Below, in pieces: positions 3,207 through 57,964 of a DNA stretch of 59,772 nt. The notes below the pieces were generated by a model. It did not search any database. It was not told the DNA's origin and saw only the letters and a list, made by a program, of their open reading frames with translations. Position 1 is the stretch's first letter. Each line of letters begins with the position of its first letter. The stretch comes from a virus (Duplodnaviria; Caudoviricetes): positions 1 to 59,772 of IMG/VR virus record IMGVR_UViG_3300042319_001458. One strand, given 5' to 3'. The translations under genes and the position numbers were made by a program.

Positions 3207-3854
3207 ATGGAACCTACAGAAAATTACGCCGTCAGTGCGCGTAGATTGTCGCCAACAGACGGCAATGATGATTTCCCTACGCCGCCATGGGCTACGCGCG
3301 CCTTGATCGAGCACGTCATTGGTATTGACCGCGTGCGTGGTCAAATATGCTGGGAGCCTGCAGCCAATCGCGGATTTATGTCGAGGCCTTTGAATGAGTA
3401 TTTTTCTTACGTTATGGAATCAGACATCCACGATTACGGAGACCGTAACGTGGTTGATTTCCTCGCTACTGAAATTGATAAAAACAATTCTACAGTTCAT
3501 TGGATAATAACCAACCCGCCATTTAATAAAGCTCAGCAGTTTATAGAGAAGGCGCAAACGATTGCGCGTGATGGTGTAGCCATGCTTGTGCGCACGTCGT
3601 TCCTTGAAGGCGTTATGCGCTATCAAACACTGTTCATGAAAAACCCGCCGGATATTGTCGCACAGTTTTCTGAACGCGTGCCAATGGTGAAAGGACGCTG
3701 CGATGCTAAGGCCTCAACGGCTACAAGCTATGCTTGGCTGGTTTGGTATATCGATCCTCATCCTGACGTGGATAAGCAGACAATTCTTAGATGGATTGAG
3801 CCGTGCAGGAAAAAACTTGAGCGAGAGGGGGACTACAAAGATGGTCGCGATTAA
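3207..3854 (+). CDS. SAM-dependent DNA amino-methyltransferase (probably N6-adenine)
   Basis: DDFPTPPW (motif X), WEPAANRG (motif I), SDIHDYG, IITNPPF (motif IV). Confidence 0.85.
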   Translation: MEPTENYAVSARRLSPTDGNDDFPTPPWATRALIEHVIGIDRVRGQICWEPAANRGFMSRPLNEYFSYVMESDIHDYGDRNVVDFLATEIDKNNSTVHWIITNPPFNKAQQFIEKAQTIARDGVAMLVRTSFLEGVMRYQTLFMKNPPDIVAQFSERVPMVKGRCDAKASTATSYAWLVWYIDPHPDVDKQTILRWIEPCRKKLEREGDYKDGRD

Positions 3855-4074
3855 TACAACCCATCATCACTGGAAAGACCCAGCAGGCTTAACGCCGTAT
3901 GAGGCGCGTATCTGGGAGCTGAAGAAACAAGGATTAAACCCACAAGAAATATCTGACGCAATGGGCGGCACATCCAGCCCGCTGTCGATCCAATCAAGAA
4001 TGAAAGTAATAAGAGAAAAAGTAGCGTTGAAGGAGATTACGGATGCACAGAGTCGACGTATATCTTGGGGCTAG
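3841..4074 (+). CDS. Small HTH (LuxR/sigma-4-like) protein
   Basis: LTPYEARIWELKKQGLNPQEISDAMG pattern. Confidence 0.6.
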   Translation: MVAINTTHHHWKDPAGLTPYEARIWELKKQGLNPQEISDAMGGTSSPLSIQSRMKVIREKVALKEITDAQSRRISWG

Positions 4075-6153: not shown

Positions 6154-6502
6154 ATATAAGCCGATTTCGACGCCTTCGCGATCACATGATGGCCAGACAA
6201 TCCGTCAAATGCTTATATCTATTCCTCGCTTAAAATGGCTTGAGCAAGACATAGATGATTGCCAATATTATCGTCAGTATAAAAACCCTAACGACGTAAT
6301 CAAAAAATTACCTATAGATATCCGTAGATCGCCTACATGGTGCGCGACGTTAAAAGGACAGCCGCTTTCACCGCAAGAGAAGAAAGTTGATGAGCTGCGC
6401 ACGTCCATGCAGCCAACAGCGATAGGCCGCGCTTTAGGTCTAAAGGTCTCAACAGTTCGAGGAATGCTTGCCAGAATAAGAGCCAAAAAAGGTGAACTAT
6501 GA
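6131..6502 (+). CDS. Protein with C-terminal HTH
   Basis: LSPQEKKVDELR...PTAIGRALGLKVSTVRGMLARIR. Confidence 0.7.
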   Translation: MQIEKVSKYKPISTPSRSHDGQTIRQMLISIPRLKWLEQDIDDCQYYRQYKNPNDVIKKLPIDIRRSPTWCATLKGQPLSPQEKKVDELRTSMQPTAIGRALGLKVSTVRGMLARIRAKKGEL

Positions 6503-6924
6503 GACAGATGACGGAAGAAAAAAGGCAACGCATAGCAGAGCTTTGGAATCAAAACATGCCAAGCTCAAAAATTGCTGAAGAGGTTGGCGTAACAAGAAAC
6601 GCCGTTATTGGCGCTGTATATAGATTGCGAAAACGCGGCGAGATAATAAAAAGCGCCAGTGAAAAAAGACAATATAAGCCGCGCGCTAAAAAGCCTCTTG
6701 CGATACGAAAGAACTTTCGCAAGCCTCCAGAATTGGGCAAGCCTGTAGGATTGATGAAACTCACAAGCCAGTCATGCAGATTTATTGTTTCAGAGGAAGG
6801 CGCTGAAGAGACGCTTTATTGCAACAACCAAATAGATCGCGCATCATATTGCACAGAGCATTATAAAATTTGTTATGTGCCGCCACGCAGAGCTATTGAG
6901 GGAATGATAGCTGGTGATAAATAA
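6499..6924 (+). CDS. gcrA: GcrA-family cell-cycle transcription regulator
   Basis: N-terminal ELW..NM.SSKIAEEVGVTRNAVIGAVYRL and C-terminal LMKLT..SCRF...YC......YC.EH..ICY, the typical GcrA architecture. Confidence 0.9.
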   Translation: MRQMTEEKRQRIAELWNQNMPSSKIAEEVGVTRNAVIGAVYRLRKRGEIIKSASEKRQYKPRAKKPLAIRKNFRKPPELGKPVGLMKLTSQSCRFIVSEEGAEETLYCNNQIDRASYCTEHYKICYVPPRRAIEGMIAGDK

Positions 6925-35751: not shown

Positions 35752-35830
35752 ATAATCCTCCTGCACAAGGTTTCGTCACGTCGTCTGTGCAGCGTCCGCT
35801 TGGTCGGTCGACGTAACTGATGTTCCAAGG
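35752..35830 (-). ncRNA. Candidate multi-pseudoknot structured RNA in the decoration-gene leader
   Basis: Four interleaved complementary pairs in about 70 nt, ending at the GGAGG SD (see findings). Confidence 0.55.
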
Positions 35831-36480
35831 CTTCTATTGCCAGAATGCTTTCTGATGTAGTCCGCACCCGCCAATAAAACTTCTACATTATCCTTTGCCT
35901 GTCCCAACATGCTATTACAAGAATAGCACAATAGTTCACGCACGGCACCTGTTTCATGACAATGGTCTACTGCTAGATCTTTTTTAGTTCCGCGATAATC
36001 CATTGTAGTCTCAGGCTGATGGCAAATAGCGCATTTACCATCTTGCTTGCGATACATTTCGGCGTAATCACCAATTGAAATGCCATAATAGCGCATCAAT
36101 CCGTAATGACGCCGTTGGTCCTTACTCATTTTATAGCCGATAGAACCATCTTCTTTCAAAACTCTTTCGGCTTTATGATCAGCCATCTTCAAGTTAGAAA
36201 TCTTAAGATTTTTCGTATCGTTATCTATAAAGAACACAGATCTATCTGGCCATTTGCCGTAATAAAGAAGCCATGCCGCCTGAGCTCCGGATATTTTTCT
36301 TCCACGATATGTGATGGAATAATAATCCTTGCCATTTTGCATTCGCTGCCAAACGCCGGCGCGTTGACCAACTTGAGCCCTGGAACTTGTTGACACTTTC
36401 CAGGTAAAAGAACCTGTTTCAGCATCATAATCCAGAACCTCTGATAGACACTCAAATGTCAGATCAACATTTTTTACCAT
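35776..36480 (-). mobile_element. Free-standing homing-type endonuclease: degenerate HNH domain fused to an endonuclease VII domain
   Basis: C-terminal YGIS..DY..M...Q.GKCAIC...LAVDHCH.TG.VR.LLC..CN..LG; N-terminal YD.ETG.F.W...AWL.YYG.WP...I.NL; AT-rich, own promoter. Confidence 0.85.
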
Positions 36481-36602: not shown

Positions 36603-37514
36603 TTAGGTTGGGAAAGAGCCAAATATTGAACGCCAATTGTAATAGCCAAAACTATAACGTTCATAGCCCTTCACCAAAAGATTGTCAGTTACGAAATCGA
36701 CTTGCATGTCAGTTTCGAACTTTACGCGCTCCATGTAGCTCAAGCCATCGATGTTCGTTAGCAAGAACCAAGCAGATGCAGACGTCAAGAAGTCGTTGAC
36801 CATGTAGCCTTCAGGCAAGCCGCCTGCAGTCATCATGATCGCGTTAACGTCATTGTCTGCCGTGCCAGGACGCAGTTCCGTCTTCGTCAGACGAATTGCG
36901 GTTGGCTCGAGAGCTGGCGGAACAACAAGACGACGACCGCGAGCAAATACTTTAAGACCAGCTTGGTCTTTAAAGTTTGTTCTGATCGAAATCATTGCGT
37001 TAAGCAGCGTGCTCTCATTGAGGTCCACATCAACTGCAGGACGGTTTGCAACCGTGCCGCCATCGATCGGATGGTTTGTTGCAATAAGAGAAACGCCGTC
37101 ACCGCCGACAGAAGCATTATACGTCGTTGCCGTGTTGAGCACGTTAGCGCCGTAGATTTCTTTCGTCTGCTGGAACGATTCAATGAGGCCGAGGTTCGAC
37201 GGCATAAACTGTGACTTATACAGGTTATCGTCGATGGCTTTACGCGTGATCGAATAGCCGAGAGCAATTTCAGTATGCTCTTGGTTATAGACGTAGCGTT
37301 CGCCTGCGGCGTTATCAAACGACGTTTGAGCGCCTTCGGTCTTTAACTGAGCAAGACCCAAGAAACGCATTTCCGCAGTGCGCTCGAGCGCCATTTTGGA
37401 ATCGTGTTTCGTGAAGATCTTGTCGTATTGAGATGGGATCATCTCATACTTGCCTTCAATCCCGCGGAGACCGGGGAGGAGAAGGTCTTTGATGGCAGAG
37501 AGATTAACAGCCAT
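36603..37514 (-). CDS. Major capsid protein
   Basis: 303 aa; LLPGL...K.EG....D...Y.HTEIALGYSIT.KAI.DNLY...D.D..T.NL..K..ERYSFG..NWR; biased codon use; downstream of the scaffold. Confidence 0.9.
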   Translation of the reverse strand: MAVNLSAIKDLLLPGLRGIEGKYEMIPSQYDKIFTKHDSKMALERTAEMRFLGLAQLKTEGAQTSFDNAAGERYVYNQEHTEIALGYSITRKAIDDNLYKSQFMPSNLGLIESFQQTKEIYGANVLNTATTYNASVGGDGVSLIATNHPIDGGTVANRPAVDVDLNESTLLNAMISIRTNFKDQAGLKVFARGRRLVVPPALEPTAIRLTKTELRPGTADNDVNAIMMTAGGLPEGYMVNDFLTSASAWFLLTNIDGLSYMERVKFETDMQVDFVTDNLLVKGYERYSFGYYNWRSIFGSFPT

Positions 37515-39799: not shown

Positions 39800-40192
39800 T
39801 TACCAAGCTGCATCTGGCGTCGGGATACTCATTTTGACCTGTGTATCAGATAGCATTCTGCATAGAACGCCATTAACCGTTAAGCTCCACCCGTCAGACG
39901 GACGGAAAACAAGCCAGTCATGCAGATTAATGTTTGCGTTGTTAAACCATTGGCCATTATCATCTTGAAAAGCGGTCGATCCCATCTTTACAAGCAAACC
40001 AACTTTTCCTTGATATCGATCTTCATCGACAGTTTTATCTGAAAGATAGATACCGCTCTTTGTTTTTGTTGGCCTGATATAAACAGCAACAAGGGCTTGG
40101 TTATTAAAAACCTTAAAGTTATCAAGATTACCAAGCCTGGAGAGCAATTCTTCTTTAGGATCTAGCGTGTGTTCCATAACCATTGGTGGCAT
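39800..40192 (-). CDS. groES: GroES-like co-chaperonin
   Basis: LVAVY.RP.KTKSGIYL.D.T...VGL.VKMG..AF...DW.VF...CRML.D. Confidence 0.8.
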   Translation of the reverse strand: MPPMVMEHTLDPKEELLSRLGNLDNFKVFNNQALVAVYIRPTKTKSGIYLSDKTVDEDRYQGKVGLLVKMGSTAFQDDNGQWFNNANINLHDWLVFRPSDGWSLTVNGVLCRMLSDTQVKMSIPTPDAAW

Positions 40193-41672: not shown

Positions 41673-44600
41673 CTATCGCGAGAACTTAGATAATACCTTA
41701 AAGGCGTGATCAATTATAGGGCTCTTGCCAACATCCCCGCCGGATTTAAAGGCGGGCAGACCCTTGAGGATCGCGGCGCGCAGCTTGGGGGTGATTTGGA
41801 TGGCGTGAGCTTTTACTTCGCCATCTTCTCCTTTTAGAGAATGAGAATGCGGCGCAACCTTTACGTCTTTATCGTATTGCGAAATAAGCTTGCTTAATCG
41901 CTGTGGCACAAGCTTATCATAAAAAGACTTCATACCTTCGCCGCCGACTTGTAAATCTCCGCCGATTAATGAATGCACCGTATCGCCCTCAACATTCTGC
42001 GTATTAGGCAATGGCTTGGTAGAAACAAGCTTATTAGCAAGGTCTTTGCCAATTACATCAGGAAGATCTTTTTGATCAACTTTCTGATTAAATACCGCAT
42101 AGCCATCATGATCTAATGCATGCAAATGATTTGAATCTGGAGACCAATGAACGGCGCTTAATTTTCTGCTAAGATCATATCTTTTTGCTTGCTCGTTACC
42201 CGGCGTCCAAACCAGCTTATCATAACCGCCTTTTGCAGCCTCCATCAATGCACGCTTCAAGCCAAGGTCGACCCATTGGTTGGTGTCAGTGACGTAAGGG
42301 CCTGATGGAACGCCTGATCTTGCCTTTTTTGAAAGCTCATTAATTTTATCAGAAAGCTCTTCTTTTTTATTATTAATAGCAACAAACTCTGGATGATTAA
42401 CAATTTTATCACCAGAAAGTCCTTGCAAATATAATTCTTCAGCTTTGCTATTTAAATCTTTTTTTGCTTTTTCGAAATCCTGCATTGCACCAAAGAAAGT
42501 AGATTCATCTGGCGCAAAACCATTTTTCCTTCCTTCTTGACCCCAATCGCTTTGCAGTTCTTCAAGATGCAAGGTCTTGCCATTATCGCGATCAGACATG
42601 CGGAGATGAGCAAGAGGATTAGGAATACCCATCCAATGAGATGATTTATATGGTTCGTTAATAGGCTTGTTTTCTGTAACGATATTCATTGGAAATCTAT
42701 CAAGCTTTTGCGCAATATTGGGATTTCTCTCAGCCTTTTGACGCAATTCCTGAATATAACTTTCTGCTTCTTCTTTGCTATCAAAAACATCAGGAAGCGC
42801 ACCTGTTACACGAAATTGAGCTTTTGTTCCTCCATGCTGAGGCAAAGCCATTACAACTTCGCGATAGTTTTCACCACCGGGAACAGTATATTCTTTATAT
42901 AAAGGCTGCTCAATATTGTTGATGCTATTGTTTGCATGCTCAACTGCATCAGCTAACGTAAAATATGTTGAATGAAATCCTGATGGACCATGCACAGCAT
43001 ATTGATGCGGCATAACAGAATCATAATTTGTTTTTACGCTGATTAAATGAGGAGGCTTCCCATACGGTCCGACCTCATAAACATCATCAGCGTCTTCAAA
43101 ACCTTCAGGTCTTTCCAATAATGCTTTTGGTTCATACTGGATCGGCGGCTTACCTCCGTAAACTCTTTCTTTTATTTGCGGAACATTCTCCTGTAAATGC
43201 CGCGCAACTTCTTTCGGATCGACGCTCCTCTGTCCAGCAAATGCGTCTGCAAGATTAGCATTATCAAGCTCCGCTGCTTTGACATTGGGCTGCCCTTTGA
43301 TCTTGTTTAAGATCTGATCAATTGGAGCGCGCTGAGGTATTTTGCTGGCCGCCTCAGCTGCGGCGCTGTAAAAACCCATTGGCGTCAGGTTGCGAGCTGT
43401 ATCTACAGCCGATGTCGACGATGGCGCAGCCCCAACAATGTCGAGAGCTTTATTGACAGGATCATCAACTGAACCGCCCTCAGCGCGAGAAAGTGGACGA
43501 ACAAGCGGTGCCGCAGCATACGACCATAATATCAGACGACGCGCCTGATCCTCAAGATCGTCATACCTAAGCTCGATCGGATTGATTGCGCCGCCGTAAG
43601 CTTTTGCAGGTTTCTTTGAAAGCTTGGAGATGTTGCCTTCGGCTTTCTTAACACCAGCACTCTGCATCTTTACGGCTTGATCATAATCGTCTGTGCGTGC
43701 GCCCTGCGCGCCATCATACAGCTGATCATATGTCGGATCATAATGCATGAACACAACGTCAGGCTTGCCTTTGTTGTATGCATCAAAATCACTATGTTTC
43801 CAGCCTTCAGGTTTATACTCTTCATTCCATGGCATGCGAGATACAACGCGGAACTTATTGCGGCTGTAAATGTGCGGCAATGCCGTATCAAATGCATCTA
43901 GGCGTCTGCCGCCTTGAGCAATCGCCAACTGCAGCATGGCGTTAGAAACGTGCGTGTGACCGCTATCTCTGCTGTTGAACACCGAGACAATATCATCGCC
44001 TTTCAACGCAAACCCGGCTTTGCCGTTTGGCGTCATAAATAAGCGCATGCCTTTATATTCTTTCGGATCATATGCATGAACCGATGCAGCAAGTGGATTT
44101 GTTTTCTTTGATTCAGTTATGGCGCTATGAAATGCATTTGCGCCTTTAGCGCCAGAAGCAAGTTCAACCATAGACGGCGCAGCTATGCCGGCTTTGTTGA
44201 ATGCTTCTTGCGCTTCTGGTGTAACATCGTAAACGGCGCGAGCGGGCGCGTCGAAATCAGTCTCTAGGTTATTTTTCCCAACTCTTCCAGTTCTTCTACT
44301 GAAAGATTGTGGAAGTGCTTCTTGCCCAAATGCTTGCCGTGATGCTCTTGTGAGCTCACGGTTCCTTTGGAAGGACCGAAGCTGTGGCTCTTCCAATCCT
44401 GGAACTGGACCGGAATTTGCTCCTCCAATTCGGGACTCCAAGATGGCGGCTTCCCCATATATGCGAGGAGCAGATAATTTTCTCTCGTAAGTGGAATATG
44501 ATTCTCCTTCATCAGGGACAGAAGAGGATCTTGACCATGCGGGCTCATTTATACCTCCAGCTAATTCGACGATCTTCTTTCGAGCGTCATCAATATCAAT

Positions 44601-46091
44601 ATTGCCTGCAGCGTAATCTTTCCATATTTCGCGCACTGCTGCAATATTTTTATCATTTTTAAATGTATCTGGGAAAAGGCCCTTTAATCCTTCCCATGTA
44701 ATGGACTGCATTTCTCGAGGTTCAATTCCTCGCTCAGAGGCGGCTCTACGCAGGGCTTCAGTATAAAAAGGGTATGTGCCCTGCACCCCTGTCTCAGCCG
44801 AGCCCTTGGCGGCTGGAGAGCCATCCTGAACGCTATTCTTAAAGTTGTGAGAAACCTGCGTAGCATTAGCCCCAAGCGGCTCTAGAAGCGCCCCAGCGAC
44901 AGCATGCGTGTCTACAGTCACGTCTTGCGTTGGCGAATGCGGATCAAGAATATTGTTGTAAAAATTGCGGATCTTGTGGCGCAGTCCCATCAAGTCGCTA
45001 ATTCGCTCGCGGGTTGCGCCGCCCATTAAGGCTTGTATGCCTTTCATTATTTCTGACGTTGATCCCCAAGACACACGAGCATTGGAGCCATCTTGATTCT
45101 TTACCCAATCACCAATCACACCTTCTGGCGTCATCAAACGATGTGATGGATCGTGATATGTTTCATCGTAAAGACGTGCCCAGATTGCTTTTAAACGCGG
45201 GTCATCAACGTCGCCGTATGTCTTGCCACGAACCTTATCGAGTAACTCATCAAACTTTTCTTTGCCAAATATACGGTTCGCCGTCATCTCCATGTCGTGC
45301 GAATAATTTTCATCTTTAGCTTTATGGTGAATATCAAATAAACGCTCTGCAAGACTGGCATTTTGAAACCAATCTTTCTGAGGCGACATTGCAGCAATAG
45401 ACGCGGCTGCCGCGGCGGGATCTGCGCGATGTTCTTTCGCAAGGCGATTGGCAAACTTATTTGCGCCGACATACCATTCTTTCGCGCGAGCTCTTTGCTC
45501 TTCTGGCATTAAATCATGCAAGAAAAGATAATTGTCTTTTAAATGATTAATAAAATTCTCTGCAACCTCTTCATGCGATCCCTGCATTTCTTCAGGTCTT
45601 AAATGATCATACGTCTTAATCAAATTGACGTTATGCTCAAAAGATTTTGGATGCATCTTTGCGGCTTCAAGACCAACGGTCAAAGCCTGATCGTTTGGAT
45701 CTTCTTGGCTTTTCACAGCAGTAGGCATGCGCTGCGAAATAATTTGAGGATGCAATCCTTCCATGTCCATTGCAGCCGGCACAGGTTGCGTCTGCGTTGG
45801 CGTCTGAACTGGCGTAGGCTCAGGAGGCATGTTGTGCCCCATCTGCGGAGGGGGCGCAGCGTCTTCAGGCTCTAGCATTGGAGGCATTGGCTGCCGAGGG
45901 AACCCGCCGCGCGCCATTACCTGCCGACCAACTTCAGGCAAATAGTGCGTTGGGTAATCGTCTTCTAAAACATGGCCGCCACGAGCCATGCTTTTGCCAG
46001 CTGCTAACGGCGATGCAACTTGAAACGATGACGTCTGATCTTTTAAGTGATCGTTGATAATGTCGAGCGCGCGATCAATTATGCTTCCCAT
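41673..46091 (-). CDS. Large polyvalent protein: HhH-GPD glycosylase-like (DUF7178-like) domain, GNAT-like domain and an uncharacterised C-terminal domain
   Basis: WY...IAAMSPQKDW..N...KIRNFYNNI...VTVDTHA...PREMQSITW; AGFAL..DIVSVFN...AIAQGGRRLDAFDT.LP..Y; GFYS...GGENYRE...SHW...EELQSDWGQ...GYD...Q..RY...FYD. Confidence 0.75.
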   Translation of the reverse strand: MGSIIDRALDIINDHLKDQTSSFQVASPLAAGKSMARGGHVLEDDYPTHYLPEVGRQVMARGGFPRQPMPPMLEPEDAAPPPQMGHNMPPEPTPVQTPTQTQPVPAAMDMEGLHPQIISQRMPTAVKSQEDPNDQALTVGLEAAKMHPKSFEHNVNLIKTYDHLRPEEMQGSHEEVAENFINHLKDNYLFLHDLMPEEQRARAKEWYVGANKFANRLAKEHRADPAAAAASIAAMSPQKDWFQNASLAERLFDIHHKAKDENYSHDMEMTANRIFGKEKFDELLDKVRGKTYGDVDDPRLKAIWARLYDETYHDPSHRLMTPEGVIGDWVKNQDGSNARVSWGSTSEIMKGIQALMGGATRERISDLMGLRHKIRNFYNNILDPHSPTQDVTVDTHAVAGALLEPLGANATQVSHNFKNSVQDGSPAAKGSAETGVQGTYPFYTEALRRAASERGIEPREMQSITWEGLKGLFPDTFKNDKNIAAVREIWKDYAAGNIDIDDARKKIVELAGGINEPAWSRSSSVPDEGESYSTYERKLSAPRIYGEAAILESRIGGANSGPVPGLEEPQLRSFQRNRELTRASRQAFGQEALPQSFSRRTGRVGKNNLETDFDAPARAVYDVTPEAQEAFNKAGIAAPSMVELASGAKGANAFHSAITESKKTNPLAASVHAYDPKEYKGMRLFMTPNGKAGFALKGDDIVSVFNSRDSGHTHVSNAMLQLAIAQGGRRLDAFDTALPHIYSRNKFRVVSRMPWNEEYKPEGWKHSDFDAYNKGKPDVVFMHYDPTYDQLYDGAQGARTDDYDQAVKMQSAGVKKAEGNISKLSKKPAKAYGGAINPIELRYDDLEDQARRLILWSYAAAPLVRPLSRAEGGSVDDPVNKALDIVGAAPSSTSAVDTARNLTPMGFYSAAAEAASKIPQRAPIDQILNKIKGQPNVKAAELDNANLADAFAGQRSVDPKEVARHLQENVPQIKERVYGGKPPIQYEPKALLERPEGFEDADDVYEVGPYGKPPHLISVKTNYDSVMPHQYAVHGPSGFHSTYFTLADAVEHANNSINNIEQPLYKEYTVPGGENYREVVMALPQHGGTKAQFRVTGALPDVFDSKEEAESYIQELRQKAERNPNIAQKLDRFPMNIVTENKPINEPYKSSHWMGIPNPLAHLRMSDRDNGKTLHLEELQSDWGQEGRKNGFAPDESTFFGAMQDFEKAKKDLNSKAEELYLQGLSGDKIVNHPEFVAINNKKEELSDKINELSKKARSGVPSGPYVTDTNQWVDLGLKRALMEAAKGGYDKLVWTPGNEQAKRYDLSRKLSAVHWSPDSNHLHALDHDGYAVFNQKVDQKDLPDVIGKDLANKLVSTKPLPNTQNVEGDTVHSLIGGDLQVGGEGMKSFYDKLVPQRLSKLISQYDKDVKVAPHSHSLKGEDGEVKAHAIQITPKLRAAILKGLPAFKSGGDVGKSPIIDHAFKVLSKFSR
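44264..44548 (-). CDS. Nested out-of-frame small gene inside the polyvalent protein linker
   Basis: GGAGG-TATAA-ATG; protein-like N-terminal 52 aa DPLLSLMKENHIPLTRENYLLLAYMGKPPSWSPELEEQIPVQFQ, while the host frame reads as a low-complexity linker. Confidence 0.65.
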   Translation of the reverse strand: MSPHGQDPLLSLMKENHIPLTRENYLLLAYMGKPPSWSPELEEQIPVQFQDWKSHSFGPSKGTVSSQEHHGKHLGKKHFHNLSVEELEELGKIT

Positions 46092-48451
46092 TATTCAGTC
46101 TCCTGCGGGCCCTGACTTTGTAACGATTTTGCAAGCTCAAGTGCGCTACGGCTCTGACGATCTGCAGAGCGATGATGCGAATCAAGTATGCGATCAGCTT
46201 CGCGATGCTCCGATTCTTCGCGCAGCTTGTGAACATCGATGCCCATCTTCATGGCCTTGAGCTCGACATCCTGACGGCGCGTCTCTGCATCCATCATCTT
46301 CGCTTCTGCGTCGACGTTGCGATACTCGCCGTCTTCTCCGCCAGCTTTCGCTTGCGCCTCGATCATCTTTGCTTGCGCCGTTAGCTGTCTTGTCTGCGCG
46401 TCCATCATGCGCGCCTGACCTTCTACCTGCGCCTCTTGCACTGAAGCTTGCGCAACCATGCTCTTCGCGTCGGCTTCCTGCTTGAGGATTTTGATCTCCT
46501 CCATAACCTTCTGCATCTCTGGCGGGATCTGGCCAGCCTGCTCGGGCGGCGCAAGGAATTGCTCTGGATTGCTCCAGCCAATTGCTTTCATCGCAGCAAG
46601 GTCAATCGCCTTCGCGTCATACATTGCAGGATTAGAAGCCTGCAGCTGTTTTAACGCCATCACCTTCATCAGGCGCTGCGTCTGGCTTGCAGTGTTTGGA
46701 TCTGCCTGCGGAACAAGATCGCAATTATTAATTGCTTCAAGAAATGTTGCTTCGTCCCATTGGCGTTTTGGTTTTTTATTTCTTCCCCAGAATGAATCTG
46801 GGTGTTCGCGGAAGCAACGAACCAGCAACTGGAATTCTTCTGCTTGCGCGGTATGCAACCGTTTATGCACGGCGTTTAGGATCTTCGTTGCTTGATCAAT
46901 CAACGCAAGCGTTGTGCCGACAGGCGCGTCGGAGCGCCCCTCGCCGACCTGCAGCTCGCTCGTTGTGCCAACGCGCTGCCCTGTCTCAACCATGTTCAAG
47001 ACAAGGTTCATCAAAGCCTGACCAGGCTCTTTATACGGCAATGGCATTACAGCTTGATTGATTGGCATGCCGCCTGTCTTCACAAGCGCGCCGCCGCCTG
47101 GCGGAACGCGGAATATATTCGTGTTCTGACGCGCGCCAGTATCCGCCATGAGGAAGCCGGGGAAATTCGCATACATGCCGGCGTCCAGCATTTCGCGCCA
47201 TGCGGCAGTAACCGCGTTTGTGGTATTACCCAGAATATGAAGTAGACCAATATCGTAAAAACCCATACCAGGAACAAACTGATACTTGACGAAATTGATG
47301 CGAGCTTCAGGCAGCTCGTTGCCCTCTTCTCCCGTTGGCTCATCGTAGTTCCTCACAATGGAGAGAACCTCCCTCGAGCTTTTATCAATAGTCACGCGAT
47401 ACGGGATCTCGAGACCTGTTACCTTCCCTTTGTATTTGTGCTCGAAGCCAGGAATATCGAGCTCGCAATACACTTCATAAATTTCACGATCGCGATCATC
47501 GGGATTGCGCGCCTCTGCAGAAATTCCTTGCTGATCTGCTTTCTCACGCTGCACAGAATCTTTGCCTTCGTATGAAGGCGTGCCAAGTTCGATGTCGCGA
47601 TAAACGCCAAGGATCTGCAAACGCTTCACAGTGCTTGGGCGCATATAAACGCGATGCGTTATACGCTTCGCGGTTGTTAAGTCTGTTGCTGCGTTATTGA
47701 CGATGAGATCGTCCGCATCGACGGACTCACTAACTGGTCTTCCTCTGAGAGGGCAAAAATAGATTTTCTTAAATGCTGTTCCGCCAAAGCCGAGCATGAA
47801 GAGCATACGATCTGTATCGGGGTAGTATTCCCGAGCAATGGCTGTGAGATAGTGATTGAGATCGGCCTGGAGAGCGTCTGCAAGTTCGTCTTCTTGGATT
47901 GTGTCATCGTCCGATTCCGTTCTTACTTTTACAGGTCCATCGGTCGGCAGCAGTTCGCTGCGCGCATTCGCTTGAAAGCGAAGCACCGCTTCAAGCAATA
48001 GCGGATGGCGAACCTTCGACATGCCTTCAACAGGAGCGCCATCGCTTGCGCCTTGCAAGCCGGGTATCTCGATCTTTAATCCGAGAAGCTTGATGCCTTG
48101 CGCGCGATCTTCAATCCAATCTTGGCGGCTTGTTAAATCGTCTTCAATGCCGCGCAGCATATCGTCCGCGATTGCCGCCAGCTCGCCTTGATCAATATCG
48201 TCGACAAGATTGTTGAACCAGCCTTCTGGATTATCAGGGCCGCACGCGCTCTCTACAGGCTGCCCGTCAAGCGAAACGCTTATTGATCCATCATCATGCT
48301 CAATGCGCAGAATGTTGCCCTTGTCGTCTGTCTCTGGCTTGTCGTGGCCTTGTTCAATCTCGACAAGAATATCTTCAAGGCCGGCGAGGCCGCCACCGGG
48401 CTCCTCCTGCTGTTGGCGGATCGAAGGGTTAAGCCCGGGTGTCAATGGCAT
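46091..48451 (-). CDS. Portal protein
   Basis: 786 aa after the terminase; HPLLLEAV.RFQA.A..ELLP..GPVK, G.AFKK.Y, PG.GFY..GL.H, PVGTTLAL. Confidence 0.9.
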   Translation of the reverse strand: MPLTPGLNPSIRQQQEEPGGGLAGLEDILVEIEQGHDKPETDDKGNILRIEHDDGSISVSLDGQPVESACGPDNPEGWFNNLVDDIDQGELAAIADDMLRGIEDDLTSRQDWIEDRAQGIKLLGLKIEIPGLQGASDGAPVEGMSKVRHPLLLEAVLRFQANARSELLPTDGPVKVRTESDDDTIQEDELADALQADLNHYLTAIAREYYPDTDRMLFMLGFGGTAFKKIYFCPLRGRPVSESVDADDLIVNNAATDLTTAKRITHRVYMRPSTVKRLQILGVYRDIELGTPSYEGKDSVQREKADQQGISAEARNPDDRDREIYEVYCELDIPGFEHKYKGKVTGLEIPYRVTIDKSSREVLSIVRNYDEPTGEEGNELPEARINFVKYQFVPGMGFYDIGLLHILGNTTNAVTAAWREMLDAGMYANFPGFLMADTGARQNTNIFRVPPGGGALVKTGGMPINQAVMPLPYKEPGQALMNLVLNMVETGQRVGTTSELQVGEGRSDAPVGTTLALIDQATKILNAVHKRLHTAQAEEFQLLVRCFREHPDSFWGRNKKPKRQWDEATFLEAINNCDLVPQADPNTASQTQRLMKVMALKQLQASNPAMYDAKAIDLAAMKAIGWSNPEQFLAPPEQAGQIPPEMQKVMEEIKILKQEADAKSMVAQASVQEAQVEGQARMMDAQTRQLTAQAKMIEAQAKAGGEDGEYRNVDAEAKMMDAETRRQDVELKAMKMGIDVHKLREESEHREADRILDSHHRSADRQSRSALELAKSLQSQGPQETE

Positions 48452-48680: not shown

Positions 48681-50330
48681 TTAAATTGGATAAAGCGGCT
48701 GCTCTTGATCGCTTATATGCATTCTACCCTCATCGAGACCGGCAGTCCATTCAGCGCCGCGGACCAGGAGACCAATCTCGCGCAGGTGTTTTAGCGCCAT
48801 GCTTGCCGTGTCGACCAGGTCGTCATGCTTGCCGCGCGGGAACTGTGCAGCCTGATTGATGACGGCTTCGGCCCATGGGCGGTCCGGAGCATGGATCAGG
48901 CCTTCGGCGAATAGATGCTGAATCGAGTAAAGACGCGCGAGCTTGTCGAGGCCCTTTGGATCAATCAGCTGGACGGCAAACTCATCGTAGCCGTAAACGC
49001 GGCGCAGCTCCTGTGCCACGCTGATGCCGCTCGCCTTGTTTTCGATTAGGAGCTTCTCGACGCCGTAGTTGTCCATGGTCTCTTGGACCTTCTCGATCAG
49101 CTGATGAAGCTCGAGGCGTTCGGCCCACGCATACATGAGCATGCACCGCGGGTGCTCCTCTTTGTATTGGCGATTAAGGATGGCCATCTGCCCGTCCGCG
49201 CCCATCGTCCTGGTGACTACGGCCGTTTGGTCGCCGCCCTTCCAGACGCCCCAGACGGTCATTGCGCTTGGATCGTTTTCGCTTTTGGTTGTGTAGGCAG
49301 TGTCGACCGCGGCGATCACATAATCAAAAGGCGGATAGGATTGCTGCCTCCATGGCGTCCACCATTCGCGCTTGATGACGCCGCCGCCTCTTGGCTCTGG
49401 CGATTGCTGGAACTGTCCTGCGACCGCATAGGGTCCCATAGCGTTTTCATCCCGATCGACCACAACCTCGGGAAAACGATCCGGAAAAATAAGCTCGCCT
49501 TCTTCTGTGCGCGGGTCTTCGAGGCCGAGCATAGTTGGGAATGATCGCCCCGGCTCGTAGCGCATCGGAAGCATAATATGGTCATAGCCAAGGTCCTTAT
49601 CAATAATGACGCCCGATACATCCTCTTCGTGCAGGCGCTGCATGATGACGACGATGGCGCTTTCCATCGGCTTGTTGAGACGTGTCGGGACCGCCTCGAG
49701 GAACCACTCGATCGTGCTGGCGCGTTGCTGATCCGAGTTTGCGCCTTCAACGCTGTGCGGATCGTCGATGATCACGCGGTCGCCGCGTGCGCCGGTGATC
49801 GAGCCGGCGGCGACGGCTTGACGAAAACCTGTCGACGTCAGTTCGAACTTGGTTTTTTGATTTTGATCTTTGGTTATTTGAACGCGATCGCCCCACCGCG
49901 CTTGATACCATTCTGATTCGATCAGCCGGCGCATTTTTGTCGAATCTCGGATTGCGAGATCCATCGAATGCGATGCGCACAGGTAACGCAGGTGCGGCAT
50001 GTTTCTCGGCCCCCATTCCCATGCGGGCCAAAAGACGTTGGTGAGGAGCGATTTCATCATGCCTGGTGGCACGTTAATCAGCAGGCGGTTGTATGGCGTG
50101 CCGTCATCGAGCTCGACGCCTTCGGTTATTGCCTCGAGCGATTCGGCGATTAGATCGACGTGCCAATTGTGAATATATGGAGCGCCTGGTTCGACGATGT
50201 GCCACGCCTGCCTGATAAATTCGGCAAGGCTTTCCTCGCACTCATCGCGGCTGATGCTGGTGAGCGTTTCGATTGCATCGATCTTCTGGCCGAATAATTC
50301 GACGATCAATGCGAGCTCCCTTCTGGCCAA
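48681..50330 (-). CDS. terL: Terminase large subunit
   Basis: INVPPGMMKS (Walker A), IIDDPH (Walker B), IMQRLHEED, DTA, IENKASG, FPRGKHDDLVD. Confidence 0.95.
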   Translation of the reverse strand: MARRELALIVELFGQKIDAIETLTSISRDECEESLAEFIRQAWHIVEPGAPYIHNWHVDLIAESLEAITEGVELDDGTPYNRLLINVPPGMMKSLLTNVFWPAWEWGPRNMPHLRYLCASHSMDLAIRDSTKMRRLIESEWYQARWGDRVQITKDQNQKTKFELTSTGFRQAVAAGSITGARGDRVIIDDPHSVEGANSDQQRASTIEWFLEAVPTRLNKPMESAIVVIMQRLHEEDVSGVIIDKDLGYDHIMLPMRYEPGRSFPTMLGLEDPRTEEGELIFPDRFPEVVVDRDENAMGPYAVAGQFQQSPEPRGGGVIKREWWTPWRQQSYPPFDYVIAAVDTAYTTKSENDPSAMTVWGVWKGGDQTAVVTRTMGADGQMAILNRQYKEEHPRCMLMYAWAERLELHQLIEKVQETMDNYGVEKLLIENKASGISVAQELRRVYGYDEFAVQLIDPKGLDKLARLYSIQHLFAEGLIHAPDRPWAEAVINQAAQFPRGKHDDLVDTASMALKHLREIGLLVRGAEWTAGLDEGRMHISDQEQPLYPI

Positions 50331-55765: not shown

Positions 55766-57964
55766 TCAAAGCCCCTTACCTTTGCGCAAACCCTTTTTGT
55801 TGTTCTTATCACCCCATGTGTCGGTCACGATCACGTCCTCCTTATGCCACAAGTTTACATATTTTTGACAGACCTCGACAGACAAACCGAACGAATCACT
55901 GAGTCGATCTGCAGCGTTTCGATCCGATTCTTTTCCCCTCCCCCATGGGTATCCACCCCGCCATGCGTCATCGATCGCCTGCACCATCTTTCGGCACATC
56001 TCCATGTCGGGTTCTTTTTGCGTTTGCTGCGCCCCTCCGAAGCCTGCTGATGCGTCCTTCTTGTTAGGCGCTGGAGTAGTAGCCGCCTCTATCATACAAG
56101 CCACCAGCGAGCTGCTTGTGAGGTTCACAGGAACCTCTATCAGCTCAAAGGGGATCTCCCACCCGTCAGCCGCCTCCTTGATCTTTCTAGCCGTCATCGT
56201 GCCCGTCATAGCCGGCTTTTCACGCTCGATATGGAGAGCCACGTTTGCCGAGCCTTCAAAGACCGATGAGCCACGCATCGATGTCCCGCCACCCTTGGCC
56301 ATGTGATGGATGCCGACGACCGCGCAGCCGAATGCATGCCTGACCGCGTCACATCCCTGAACGTAAAGCGTCATGTCTTTCTGCAGGTTTTCGTCCGCTC
56401 CAGGTAAGACGCGCGACACCGTGTCGACGAAAATCGCGATAGGCTTCTCGTGACAGTAGTTTTCTATTTCATGCTTGATTGTCTGAATTAACTTCACAAT
56501 GTGTGAAGGATCTACAAAGTTCATCGATTCCCTGATGAAGTGAAAATTATTCCTATTTATTTTACGACCTGTCTTCTTCTCCCACGCCTGCATGCGGAAT
56601 TTCATGTCCGTCGAGCCCTCCGAGGAGATGTAGAGGACGGGCCCATGCTTGTTTATTTTTCGGCCCCACCAATGCGTGATGTCGACGTCGCAGAGCGAGA
56701 AGGCGAGATCTAACGCGACGAAGGTCTTGCCGCAGCCGGGGATGCCGTAGATGAAAGCCATTGCGCTTTCGATCATCAGCTTTTCGATCAAGAAGACAGG
56801 ATCGGGAAGGTTATAGATATCATCCACACGCAGCACCTCGAATAAATTAGTTGGCTTAGGATCGACGACAGTGAAGACCTGCTTTGGCGTGTCCCATTCG
56901 TCGTCAGATTCGAGTTGCGTTTTATTCGGCGAATTTTCCGCAACTGGCTCTGCAATCCCCTGCGCAATTTTATCGGCGAATGATGGTTCCTTTTTTGGTG
57001 TAGGCTTTGGGACCTTTGCCGCCTCGATAATCTTGTCCCAATCTTTGAGAGACGCGCGCCACTTTGCGCGAAATTCAGTTACGCCTCGGCCTTCGCGCTC
57101 AAGCAGCTGTTCCTTGCTTTCAGCCGGACCCGGGAGACGTGATTCGACCTTGCTGACGTAAATGCCAAACAGCTCTTCGCGCTGGGCCTCGAGCTCCTTG
57201 GGACCAGGCTGGATCGGGCAGTCGCGTGCTATGTCCGTCAGCCGCGCCCAAATCATCTTGAACATATAATCTTCGCGACCATCCTGAATGCCGCCCCAGG
57301 CATTCGTCGCATGCTCTGGAGACGCCGTCCTTTGCGTCGGGTCGCTTGGCGTATGCCCACCATACCTTTCAGCAAGAATGTCTATTTGCTCGCACAGGAA
57401 TTTAGGCGCGACAGCAATCTCTAAATCCCATGGCGCTTGCCCCTCGATCCATTCATACCGCTTGCCGCTTTCGTGCATCGATGGAGCCGCGACGATAAAG
57501 CCGCCAATGCCTCTAATATCGACGCCGATCGACGTTTTAATGGTTGGCGGGCTCCACCCATCAGGCGCGCGAAAAAGGATCTGCAAGCCGCCTCCACCAG
57601 TGCGCTGGGTAGGCGATTCAAGGTCAGCCGCATGCTCTTGCATGTCGAGACAGCAAGACCACCATAATGCCGCGTCAGGCTTAGAATGCGTATCGAGATC
57701 AACAACGAAGACGCGACCGCTACAGCCGCCCGTGAGGATGCCGATATTGTTGCGGGCTTCATTGATATTTGAAAACCAGCTGTTGAAGGTATTGTCATCA
57801 ACGAGCTCGTTTTGAAAATCACGCCATTCCTTCAGCGCGGGCCTTTTCCAATTATGGACGGCCCTGCTTGGGTAATATGACGGGACTGCTTGCAAACCAA
57901 GAGCGCGATACATGCGCGCATAATCTGTAAGACTTGCGAAGTCTTCTTCAAAGTCAGGTAGCAT
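55766..57964 (-). CDS. Primase-polymerase (bifunctional Prim-Pol) fused to RepA/AAA_25 helicase
   Basis: NIGILTG...VVDLD...TGGGG...DIRG.GGFIVAAPSMH.SG..Y.W; Walker A GIPGCGKT, YISSEG, FVDT, IHH..K..RGSS. Confidence 0.9.
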   Translation of the reverse strand: MLPDFEEDFASLTDYARMYRALGLQAVPSYYPSRAVHNWKRPALKEWRDFQNELVDDNTFNSWFSNINEARNNIGILTGGCSGRVFVVDLDTHSKPDAALWWSCCLDMQEHAADLESPTQRTGGGGLQILFRAPDGWSPPTIKTSIGVDIRGIGGFIVAAPSMHESGKRYEWIEGQAPWDLEIAVAPKFLCEQIDILAERYGGHTPSDPTQRTASPEHATNAWGGIQDGREDYMFKMIWARLTDIARDCPIQPGPKELEAQREELFGIYVSKVESRLPGPAESKEQLLEREGRGVTEFRAKWRASLKDWDKIIEAAKVPKPTPKKEPSFADKIAQGIAEPVAENSPNKTQLESDDEWDTPKQVFTVVDPKPTNLFEVLRVDDIYNLPDPVFLIEKLMIESAMAFIYGIPGCGKTFVALDLAFSLCDVDITHWWGRKINKHGPVLYISSEGSTDMKFRMQAWEKKTGRKINRNNFHFIRESMNFVDPSHIVKLIQTIKHEIENYCHEKPIAIFVDTVSRVLPGADENLQKDMTLYVQGCDAVRHAFGCAVVGIHHMAKGGGTSMRGSSVFEGSANVALHIEREKPAMTGTMTARKIKEAADGWEIPFELIEVPVNLTSSSLVACMIEAATTPAPNKKDASAGFGGAQQTQKEPDMEMCRKMVQAIDDAWRGGYPWGRGKESDRNAADRLSDSFGLSVEVCQKYVNLWHKEDVIVTDTWGDKNNKKGLRKGKGL

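Follow-up and report, generated by a model that had tools for sequence, protein, structure and literature searches.

A small +1-frame gene embedded at the end of a DUF7178 domain in a tailed-phage polyvalent protein, and its possible role as a partner of that domain

The window, a stretch of 59,772 nucleotides from a Caudoviricetes virus record (IMGVR_UViG_3300042319_001458), carries a polyvalent open reading frame (ORF) of 1472 aa. A small gene is nested in it in the +1 frame, with its start at the C-terminal border of a DUF7178 domain. Judging from its sequence conservation, this nested ORF is almost certainly a real, functional gene under purifying selection. The best overall explanation, to which we give a probability of about 0.6, is that the gene is separately initiated and that its product binds the DUF7178 domain, with masking of this domain as the preferred role.

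The embedded gene and its host protein

The features are listed below by their coordinates in the window.
41673..46091, minus strand: polyvalent ORF of 1472 aa, directly after the portal gene; frame 0 runs through the small gene
46091..48451, minus strand: portal gene (SU10-type), the upstream neighbour
44532..45740, minus strand: DUF7178 domain, aa 118-520 (Pfam PF23802, E 7e-25), with a predicted HhH-GPD glycosylase-like fold
44973..44975, minus strand: codon of Lys373 (HKIRNFYNN), invariant (35/35 aligned domains) and a candidate equivalent of the Lys in endonuclease III
44910..44912, minus strand: codon of Asp394 (VTVDTHA), present in 35/35 aligned domains; candidate catalytic Asp
44554..44558, minus strand: Shine-Dalgarno (SD) motif GGAGG, at a spacing of 5 nt from the nested ATG; the Gly-Gly codons of the domain end supply it
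44549..44551, minus strand: TAA stop in the +1 frame, immediately preceding the nested ATG
44264..44548, minus strand: small gene embedded in the 1472-aa ORF and read in its +1 frame; 94 codons followed by TAG
44384..44548, minus strand: conserved core (aa 1-55) of the small protein, with the family motif, four short helices and substitutions at nested third positions
44267..44383, minus strand: tail of the nested ORF, aa 56-94, conserved in close relatives only; the main frame is better conserved here
44238..44549, minus strand: main-frame linker, aa 515-618, S/R/E-rich, the frame-0 reading of the small gene
43641..44201, minus strand: second domain, aa 631-817, matching phrog_2563 and Microbacterium phage 'minor capsid protein' annotations
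41727..42914, minus strand: C-terminal region, aa 1060-1455, with a match to a section of the large profile phrog_7348

The host protein sits in a head-assembly block beside portal and terminase, its reading frame is open also in two relatives (L002 and L003), and it has the marks of a polyvalent protein, being large and multi-domain, encoded in a phage head module and composed of domains that are shuffled among relatives. At the end of the DUF7178 domain, where the main frame encodes ELAGGINE (aa 509-516), the minus strand reads GCT GGA GGT ATA AAT GAG, which contains GGAGG, the spacer tataa and ATG, so that the 94-codon ORF opens exactly as the original prediction had described. The small gene, which overlies main-frame aa 515-609, thus appears to possess its own start codon (ATG at 44548-44546; the TAG is at 44264-44266) and a putative ribosome-binding site. 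The further claim of read-through by the polyprotein also stood, since frame 0 continues across the small gene. The main-frame stretch over the gene was said to be a linker rich in S, R and G; the enrichment in S and R was found, with E as the third enriched residue (S 12, R 12 and E 11%, versus 7, 5 and 7% in the whole protein). Gene callers omit the embedded gene on long contigs.

Selection, family and linkage to DUF7178

In all eight close viral loci (L002-L009; main-frame identity 52-84%), the nested ORF is open and both the ATG and a GGAG-type SD are kept, in agreement with the expectation of conserved start signals. Pooled over 10 separate pairs, substitutions at main-frame codon positions 1:2:3 amounted to 119:63:49 in the overlap versus 430:294:1284 in the flanks (Fisher p 7e-32; same direction in 10/10 pairs), and those in the overlap concentrate on nested third codon positions. 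Over main-frame aa 516-566, the counts at positions 1, 2 and 3 were 2, 0 and 0 between the window and L002 (6, 4 and 72 for the same pair in the domain), 6, 0 and 0 between the window and L003, and 14, 2 and 4 between L005 and L006, while aa 567-609 gave mixed counts of 10, 8 and 13. Natural variants from two aquatic runs follow the same pattern: all three in the nested core are silent for the small protein, two of them alter the main-frame residue, and 19 of 22 in the DUF7178 part fall on main position 3. Codon-position counts and natural variants together bear out the purifying selection in the +1 frame that the original prediction called for. When the nested peptide is recoded synonymously, the main frame stays open in only 0.8% of cases; both frames are selected, and codon choice maintains both open.

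The first ~52 residues had been singled out as a compact unit, which fits the span of the family profile (aa 4-55) and the selection signature. When 20 small proteins from the database were made into a profile, with the window and its close relatives left out, it matched the window ORF at E 5e-24 (80 bits) among 1138 six-frame window pieces, the next best of which reached E 3.6. With a profile of 15 window and locus sequences, 1731 cluster representatives passed E <= 0.001, of which 264 also passed E <= 1e-10; the matches listed are for the most part 52-110 aa long, and the best-listed members are mostly separate proteins of this length that begin with M. The nested peptide is, in its first ~55 residues, a small, acidic and helical protein and a member of a large uncharacterised phage family (TRENY), which has the motif DPLLxxMKxxxIPLTRENYLxLAYMGxPPxWSxELEExIPxQFQ and is without a name in Pfam, PHROG or NCBIfam. 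An SD-like motif precedes the start codon in 55/60 distinct family loci when the start codon is chosen with preference for an SD.

Homologues had been expected directly 3' of DUF7178-like domains, free or nested, and this was the case, on the same strand, at 58 of the 58 distinct viral loci with enough upstream room to judge, 40 of them reached from the small protein or from its motif as seed, not from DUF7178. The gene is embedded at 28 of these loci, end-overlapping at 20 and separate at 10; it lies in the +1 frame at 50, and at most of them its ORF starts no more than about 20 nt from the domain end. In the window, the family profile match begins 14 nt ahead of the domain end. Separate and end-overlapping forms predominate in the clade around the window in the DUF7178 tree, which is consistent with a read-through origin of the linker, and at least eight layout changes are forced by well-supported branches of this tree. 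Two further types of +1 ORF occupy the same place at other DUF7178 loci, giving at least three types in all; many candidate ATGs of types 2 and 3 are without an SD.

These data bear on two simpler readings of the nested frame. The reading as a frame open by chance, or as the disused remnant of a formerly separate gene, would fit with the other alternative-frame ORFs of 90-100 codons in the same window and with the silence of gene callers on long contigs, but it is scarcely credible against the match to an independent profile, the kept ATG and SD, and the synonymous-only change in the nested frame across all-embedded lineages (the window clade versus the L005/L006, L117 and L014 clades). Only slightly less improbable is a ribosomal +1 shift at the end of the DUF7178 domain, which would yield a shorter DUF7178-peptide fusion stopping at 44264 and no separate protein. 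The predominance of the +1 frame, the closeness of most starts to the domain end and the SD-less candidate ATGs of types 2 and 3 would all suit such a shift, but in the window a +1 TAA stands immediately ahead of the ATG with GGAGG 5 nt upstream, the 10 separate loci place the gene past the DUF7178 stop, at distances of up to 1006 nt and in all three frames (0, +1 and +2), and the best-listed database members are mostly proteins of their own.

Predicted complex and possible roles

The AF2 model of the DUF7178 domain (pLDDT 92.5) resembles HhH-GPD glycosylases at the fold level, as a moderate match. Rows 1-20 of the VIA-align comparison were all HhH-GPD glycosylases or DUF2419, with 166-228 residues aligned at rmsd 3.7-5.4 and Z from 9.1 down to 5.5; the best row was 3n0u (Z 9.1, 187 residues at rmsd 3.8), and 7ugk reached Z 8.9 over 228 residues. 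A Z of 9 is moderate, in a range that VIA-align rates as common for helical proteins. Since only 187 residues are aligned in the best row, DUF7178 probably carries a large insertion. Searching the pdb with this model by Foldseek gave nothing at E <= 0.001, and Pfam HhH-GPD (PF00730) was absent among 25 listed of 39 families for 35 DUF7178 domains. The original prediction of a glycosylase-like domain was thus upheld in part: the fold-level match and VDTH (aa 393-396) with a Lys 21 residues upstream speak for it, whereas PF00730 had no match in the six frames of the window and did match in 14/14 control genomes. In E. coli endonuclease III (nth), the VDTH contains D138 and the Lys, K120, lies 18 residues upstream; both are catalytic residues. 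Full-text search on the name DUF7178 returned no literature, and no activity or toxicity is known for it.

Modelling of the domain with the peptide, which had been proposed as a check, predicted an interface: the complex scored 0.68 (runs 0.66, 0.70 and 0.68) versus 0.02 for the best control, with partner pLDDT >= 75 and contact agreement among runs >= 79%. The score mark was met by 58/80 solved complexes and 2/110 mismatched pairs, counts that are only rough because our own alignments were used. Based on this model, the small protein probably binds the DUF7178 domain. Predicted contacts include P120, R189, W225 and T278, the last adjoining Asp277 (domain numbering), and the confident ones are mostly with residues 157-193 and 224-232, not with the Lys/Asp motifs; these two regions may represent an insertion relative to canonical HhH-GPD enzymes. 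The predicted interface positions are no better conserved than the rest of the domain (0.54 vs 0.54).

The small-gene start likely overlapped the final DUF7178 codons in the +1 frame in the ancestral layout, and the DUF7178 frame would then have lost its stop or been fused to downstream domains, so that frame-0 read-through of the small gene could have produced the S/R/E-rich linker. With a GGAGG-ATG of its own, the small protein would be synthesised in step with the large protein, associate with the DUF7178 domain and mask the HhH-GPD-like enzyme domain in the producing cell, as an inhibitor or as a holding factor, and, as a non-covalent partner, it may be shed once the large protein is packaged or ejected. 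Inhibition in particular is plausible, at somewhat less than even odds.

It is also possible, if rather less probable, that the small protein is a genuine DUF7178 partner of another kind, namely a folding or holding chaperone, an adaptor for encapsidation to portal or scaffold, or an activating or co-packaged enzyme subunit. Such a role would share the linkage and the predicted binding with the masking reading, and it would suit the location in the head-assembly block, the confident contacts mostly away from the Lys/Asp motifs and the occurrence of DUF7178 domains with intact Lys and Asp but without this partner. Among 94 distinct DUF7178 domains, no +1 partner of any of the three types was detected for nine, four of which belong to an alignment (A2) in which Lys and Asp are invariant; therefore, an obligatory antidote is not required everywhere. 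Nevertheless, an acidic small protein touching T278 beside the invariant Asp suits the masking of a nucleic-acid site equally well, and the present evidence does not distinguish a non-inhibitor partner from an inhibitor. Extended to the whole domain family, the masking reading raises the doubtful but far-reaching idea that DUF7178 domains are DNA- or nucleotide-glycosylase effectors of virion proteins, nearly always accompanied by a dedicated small partner at the 3' edge (of at least three types, often +1-embedded), which would hold the enzyme inactive in the producing cell and be stripped at packaging and unfolding for ejection, so that the enzyme would act only in the next host.

Comparison with known systems

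A large unnamed family of phage proteins of about 55 residues is defined here and tied to DUF7178, a domain of unknown function, which itself gains a testable assignment as an HhH-GPD-like fold with invariant Lys and Asp. In its embedded form, such a gene escapes annotation pipelines. It also becomes testable by what means a phage keeps virion-delivered enzymes from doing harm during production, and if the effector-masking reading is true, a general rule of 'self-immunity by embedded gene' could hold for such enzymes.

Pairs of toxin and immunity protein, or of toxin and antitoxin, carry a small protective gene directly downstream. The DUF7178 pair is similar to them in having a small gene immediately 3' of an enzyme domain, with an overlap of the translational-coupling type, a specific complex, here predicted, and at least three sequence types of small ORF at one position. 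It differs in that a toxic action of DUF7178 and a protective one of the peptide are hypothetical, that DUF7178 often stands at the N-terminus or in the interior of a larger protein continuing through the small gene, and that some DUF7178 domains are without a detectable partner. Ugi of PBS2 and p56 of phi29, both small and acidic phage proteins, bind the host family-1 uracil-DNA glycosylase and inhibit it through DNA mimicry; TRENY proteins are likewise small and acidic, and their predicted target is the phage's own HhH-GPD-like domain. At the fold level, the DUF7178 model matches endonuclease III, Ogg, AGOG, MagIII and the DUF2419 queuine salvage enzyme, and it shares VDTH and the upstream Lys with E. 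coli nth, but HhH-GPD glycosylases give no sequence-level match to it. A multi-domain protein beside the portal, with a domain order shuffled among relatives, is found here as in the polyvalent proteins of Iyer et al. 2017 (PMC5512222), a paper that cites polymorphic toxin systems and whose main text is without the words 'glycosylase', 'overlapping' and 'frameshift' and describes neither an HhH-GPD-like domain nor embedded genes.

The closest parallel in gene arrangement is provided by the Rz/Rz1 spanins of phage lambda and its relatives, in which a larger phage gene likewise encloses a small +1-frame gene, the layout may be embedded, overlapped or separated, the products interact (an interaction that is predicted for the DUF7178 pair) and the embedded gene is overlooked by gene callers. 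The two systems have no relation in sequence or function, since spanins are membrane lysis proteins, whereas the DUF7178 pair belongs to the head module and comprises an acidic, soluble peptide and an enzyme-like domain of the cytoplasm or the virion. A spanin survey (PMC6139136) found no family that mixes embedded with overlapped or separated members, whereas the one TRENY family covers all three layouts; therefore, the path from a separate to an embedded gene is traceable here, in what would be, beside the spanins, the second well-supported embedded/overlapped/separated gene-pair system in tailed phages.

Genomic setting and sequence of the nested gene

The contig is complete (59772 bases) and bears direct terminal repeats. 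The nested ORF lies within its head module, inside a 1472-aa ORF, as follows.

minus strand, listed before the large terminase: small terminase
48681-50330, minus strand: large terminase
46091-48451, minus strand: SU10-type portal
41673-46091, minus strand: 1472-aa ORF, after the portal gene
aa 118-520 of this ORF: DUF7178 domain (Pfam)
aa 631-817: second domain, matching Microbacterium phage proteins annotated 'minor capsid protein'
C-terminal region: match to part of a very large PHROG profile

The GroES-like co-chaperonin gene (39800-40192, minus strand) and the major head protein gene (36603-37514) come after the 1472-aa ORF, and a gene with HNH and endonuclease VII matches (35776-36480, minus strand) directly follows the major head protein gene. 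Domain order and combination vary among relatives of the 1472-aa ORF, a pattern that fits the polyvalent proteins of Iyer et al. 2017 (PMC5512222). Outside the head module, the window encodes a Prim-Pol and AAA_25 protein of primase-helicase-type replication (55766-57964, minus strand) and a GcrA-like cell-cycle regulator (6499-6924, plus strand; Pfam GcrA E 1.6e-16), the latter indicating that the phage host is probably an alphaproteobacterium. DNA-modification genes, a possible reason for self-protection, were absent from the 20 window ORFs scanned with Pfam. Positions 44000-45200 were present whole in 18 DNA runs of lake or freshwater origin dated 2020-2024, no run recorded as RNA was among those listed, and diverged relatives occurred in two aquatic runs of 2025.

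The original prediction described a small gene opening in the +1 frame, behind a Shine-Dalgarno (SD) motif, where the DUF7178 domain ends, and everything it described of this ORF is present in the sequence. The main frame there reads ...ELAGGINEPAW, and the DNA gives GGAGG, five bases and ATG, with a +1-frame TAA immediately 5' of this ATG. The ORF runs for 94 codons to a TAG stop at 44264-44266, spanning main-frame residues 515-609, a stretch nearly coincident with the linker that joins the first domain to the second. In all eight close viral loci (L002-L009; three clades, with main-frame identities of 84, 57 and 52%), the +1 ORF is open over 96-98 codons and carries an ATG with a GGAG-type SD, while the main-frame residues at the start vary (GGINE vs NGVIHD). 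Judged by eye from the printed sequences, identity between clades over the first ~50 nested codons is about 70% for the peptide and about 35-40% for the main frame.

Selection in the +1 frame

In the DUF7178 domain, substitutions between the window and L002 fell at main-frame positions 1, 2 and 3 in the numbers 6, 4 and 72. Over main-frame residues 516-566 they shifted to the first positions, which are the third positions of the nested frame (window vs L002: 2, 0, 0; window vs L003: 6, 0, 0; L002 vs L003: 4, 0, 0; L005 vs L006: 14, 2, 4). The same shift was found in 10 of 10 phylogenetically separate pairs, some far from the window, with pooled counts of 119:63:49 in the overlaps vs 430:294:1284 in the flanks (Fisher p 7e-32). 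The last ~43 nested codons gave mixed counts (10, 8, 13) and a better conserved main frame, so that the first ~55 residues probably make up the functional small protein. Under this tail, main-frame residues 567-609 (44267-44383, minus strand) carry a motif conserved across clades, RSFxRxRxLxxAxxxAxG...PQSxxRRTGxxG, which adjoins the second domain and by eye looks basic and linker-like.

Natural variants, taken as differences in contigs from two aquatic runs (labelled 'RNA-Seq', probably DNA, and known as contigs only), point the same way: all three in the nested core leave the small protein unchanged (K>K, P>P, L>L), two of them altering a main-frame residue, and 19 of 22 in the domain part fell at main third positions. 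With such low contig depth, the confirmation is a small one. The main frame is also maintained across the overlap; only 0.8% of synonymous recodings of the nested peptide leave it open, and the third frame is closed. We have high confidence that the nested ORF is a separately started gene under selection. A chance open frame is unlikely beside this substitution pattern.

The small-protein family, its linkage and its layouts

A word-index protein search returned only two close relatives, whose contigs are 336 and 545 bases long; it took a full HMM scan to reveal the family, and tblastn of the nested peptide against phage GenBank records gave only a chance-level match (E 0.8). All further matches to a profile built from five nested peptides lay immediately 3' of DUF7178 domains and on their strand, part of them separate genes behind the stop codon of the DUF7178 ORF; elsewhere, none of about 9000 six-frame pieces matched at E < 0.01. 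Against 1.84 billion representative proteins, a 15-sequence profile retrieved 1731 matches at E <= 0.001, 264 of them at E <= 1e-10. The best 150 of these 1731 were mostly 52-110 aa long, a few being tandem duplications; the database members P0006 and P0007, for example, hold two tandem copies of a ~50-residue module. The consensus is approximately D-P-v-L-x-x-M-k-x-x-x-I-P-m-T-R-E-N-Y-L-x-L-A-Y-M-G-n-P-P-e-e-L-x-x-E-E-E-A-x-L-P-e-q-F-Q. As a check on circularity, a profile built from 20 database members alone matched the window ORF at E 5e-24. The nested peptide and 4 to 10 members, depending on the library, had no named match in Pfam, PHROGs, PADLOC or NCBIfam; ESM Atlas gave only 'hypothetical protein' clusters, and the family's clusters are named 'hypothetical protein' or not at all.

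For seeding independent of DUF7178, viral loci were fetched with two family members and the back-translated I-P-x-T-R-E-N-Y-[LI] motif. Over all loci there were 60 distinct family matches, and DUF7178 lay directly upstream on the same strand in all 58 with upstream room, 40 of which came from the set not seeded with DUF7178; the remaining two sit no more than 72 bases from the end of a locus. The small gene was embedded in the DUF7178-containing ORF in 28 of the 58 (the large ORF running off the locus in 6 of these), overlapped its end in 20, the DUF7178 ORF stopping shortly after the small-gene start, and followed its stop in 10. The +1 frame was used in 50 of 58. A start codon with an SD-like motif could be found in 55 of 60 loci, a figure biased toward SD by the choice of start among candidates, against a background of 8.7% per start-like triplet. 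Translation of the small gene by +1 frameshifting, compatible with the prevailing +1 frame, is unlikely given a start codon and SD of its own, and in the window a +1-frame TAA immediately precedes that start.

When mapped onto a FastTree built from 94 distinct DUF7178 domains, the embedded and end-overlap labels require at least eight changes on well-supported branches. The window clade comprises five embedded genes, has as its sister two loci in which the small gene is separate, and sits within a 24-row clade that has 17 end-overlapping members; the direction of change is a parsimony reading, as the tree is a quick one with a midpoint root. The window's second domain was not found 3' of the small gene in the separate-gene sisters L108 and L114, because domain order is shuffled, so a three-gene fusion path is drawn from the tree and the layouts only. 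In another locus, L023 (2419-3621), an in-frame stop within the DUF7178 domain may reflect a broken copy or a sequencing error.

Most of the 46 DUF7178-seeded loci without a family match bear different +1 ORFs in exactly this position. These fall into two sequence types, types 2 and 3 (alignments A4 and A5), each in one tree clade and with 12 and 13 distinct rows, respectively.

Loci with the other +1 ORF types (positions within each locus)
L010, L018, L021, L022, L027, L032, L035, L039, L044, L053, L069; about 3500-3880: one type
L028, L033, L037, L040-L042, L045, L055; about 3555-3755: the other type

For most of them the start is an ATG lying 58 or 76 nt upstream of where the domain stops, and their substitutions are shifted to main-frame first positions as in the family (L027 vs L034: 6, 0, 0; L033 vs L042: 16, 6, 5). 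Homology of types 2 and 3 to the family was not supported (hhalign probabilities 0.3% and 0.08%); between the two types hhalign gave 15.8% (E 0.0016), a value partly forced by the common main frame, and homology is not claimed. Nine of the 94 DUF7178 domains had no detected partner of any type.

The DUF7178 fold, predicted binding and possible role

An AF2 model of DUF7178 from 35 sequences reached pLDDT 92.5. Sequence searches of the PDB with the domain or its profile found nothing, Foldseek with the model gave nothing in its pdb set at E <= 0.001, and BFVD gave only uncharacterised polyvalent phage proteins. In an exhaustive VIA-align search, rows 1-20 contained HhH-GPD glycosylases and a relative of theirs, the queuine salvage enzyme DUF2419, and nothing else (3n0u, Z 9.1, rmsd 3.8, 187 aligned; 7ugk, Z 8.9, 228 aligned; 1xqp, Z 8.0; 8a5g, Z 7.6; down to Z 5.5). 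For a helical protein such Z values count as moderate; the argument for the match is that all 20 rows belong to one superfamily. All 35 aligned domains keep Lys373 (HKIRNFYNN) and Asp394 (VTVDTHA) unchanged. In the K-12 record, E. coli endonuclease III likewise carries VDTH, its Asp138 being preceded by a Lys 18 residues upstream; these two are its catalytic residues. The Pfam HhH-GPD model did not match, and the domain is therefore called HhH-GPD-like rather than filed as a member.

The small protein was modelled by AF2 from 28 sequences as four short helices (pLDDT 78). With both alignments, its predicted complex with DUF7178 scored 0.68 (runs 0.66, 0.70 and 0.68; best control 0.02), with partner pLDDT of at least 75 and contact agreement between runs of at least 79%. 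Of solved complexes, 58 of 80 reach the score mark, as do 2 of 110 mismatched pairs; with our own alignments as input, these counts apply only roughly. We know of no similar complex, which makes a pass by memorisation in the model unlikely. Confident contacts lie mainly at domain residues 157-193 and 224-232, with further ones at P120, R189, W225 and T278, the last adjoining the invariant Asp. Interface positions gave no signal of conservation (0.54 vs 0.54 for other positions) or of co-variation, and the consensus was common to 11 of 28 interface vs 159 of 349 other positions. Overall, the modelling supports binding of the small protein to the DUF7178 domain.

The small protein may mask its neighbor, a role proposed with less confidence than the gene itself. 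The DUF7178 frame could have lost its stop codon or become joined to downstream domains, reading through the small gene as a linker and leaving it embedded, while the strong internal SD would allow the small protein to be made alongside the large one. The acidic small protein might then mask the enzyme-like domain in the producing cell and come off when the large protein is packaged or ejected. As the main rival reading, it could serve as a chaperone, packaging adaptor or subunit, from which our data do not separate the masking role; linkage and predicted binding could serve either.

No full-text literature on DUF7178 by that name was found, and titles joining HhH-GPD with phage virions included none on this domain. 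The main text of PMC5512222 contains no 'glycosylase', 'overlapping' or 'frameshift', and its domain tables might list DUF7178 under another name. We found published descriptions neither of the small-protein family nor of the DUF7178 fold, and none of genes embedded in polyvalent proteins. Among known systems, the Rz/Rz1 spanin genes (PMC6139136) are the closest analogue in gene layout, and a toxin-immunity pair is the closest in logic.
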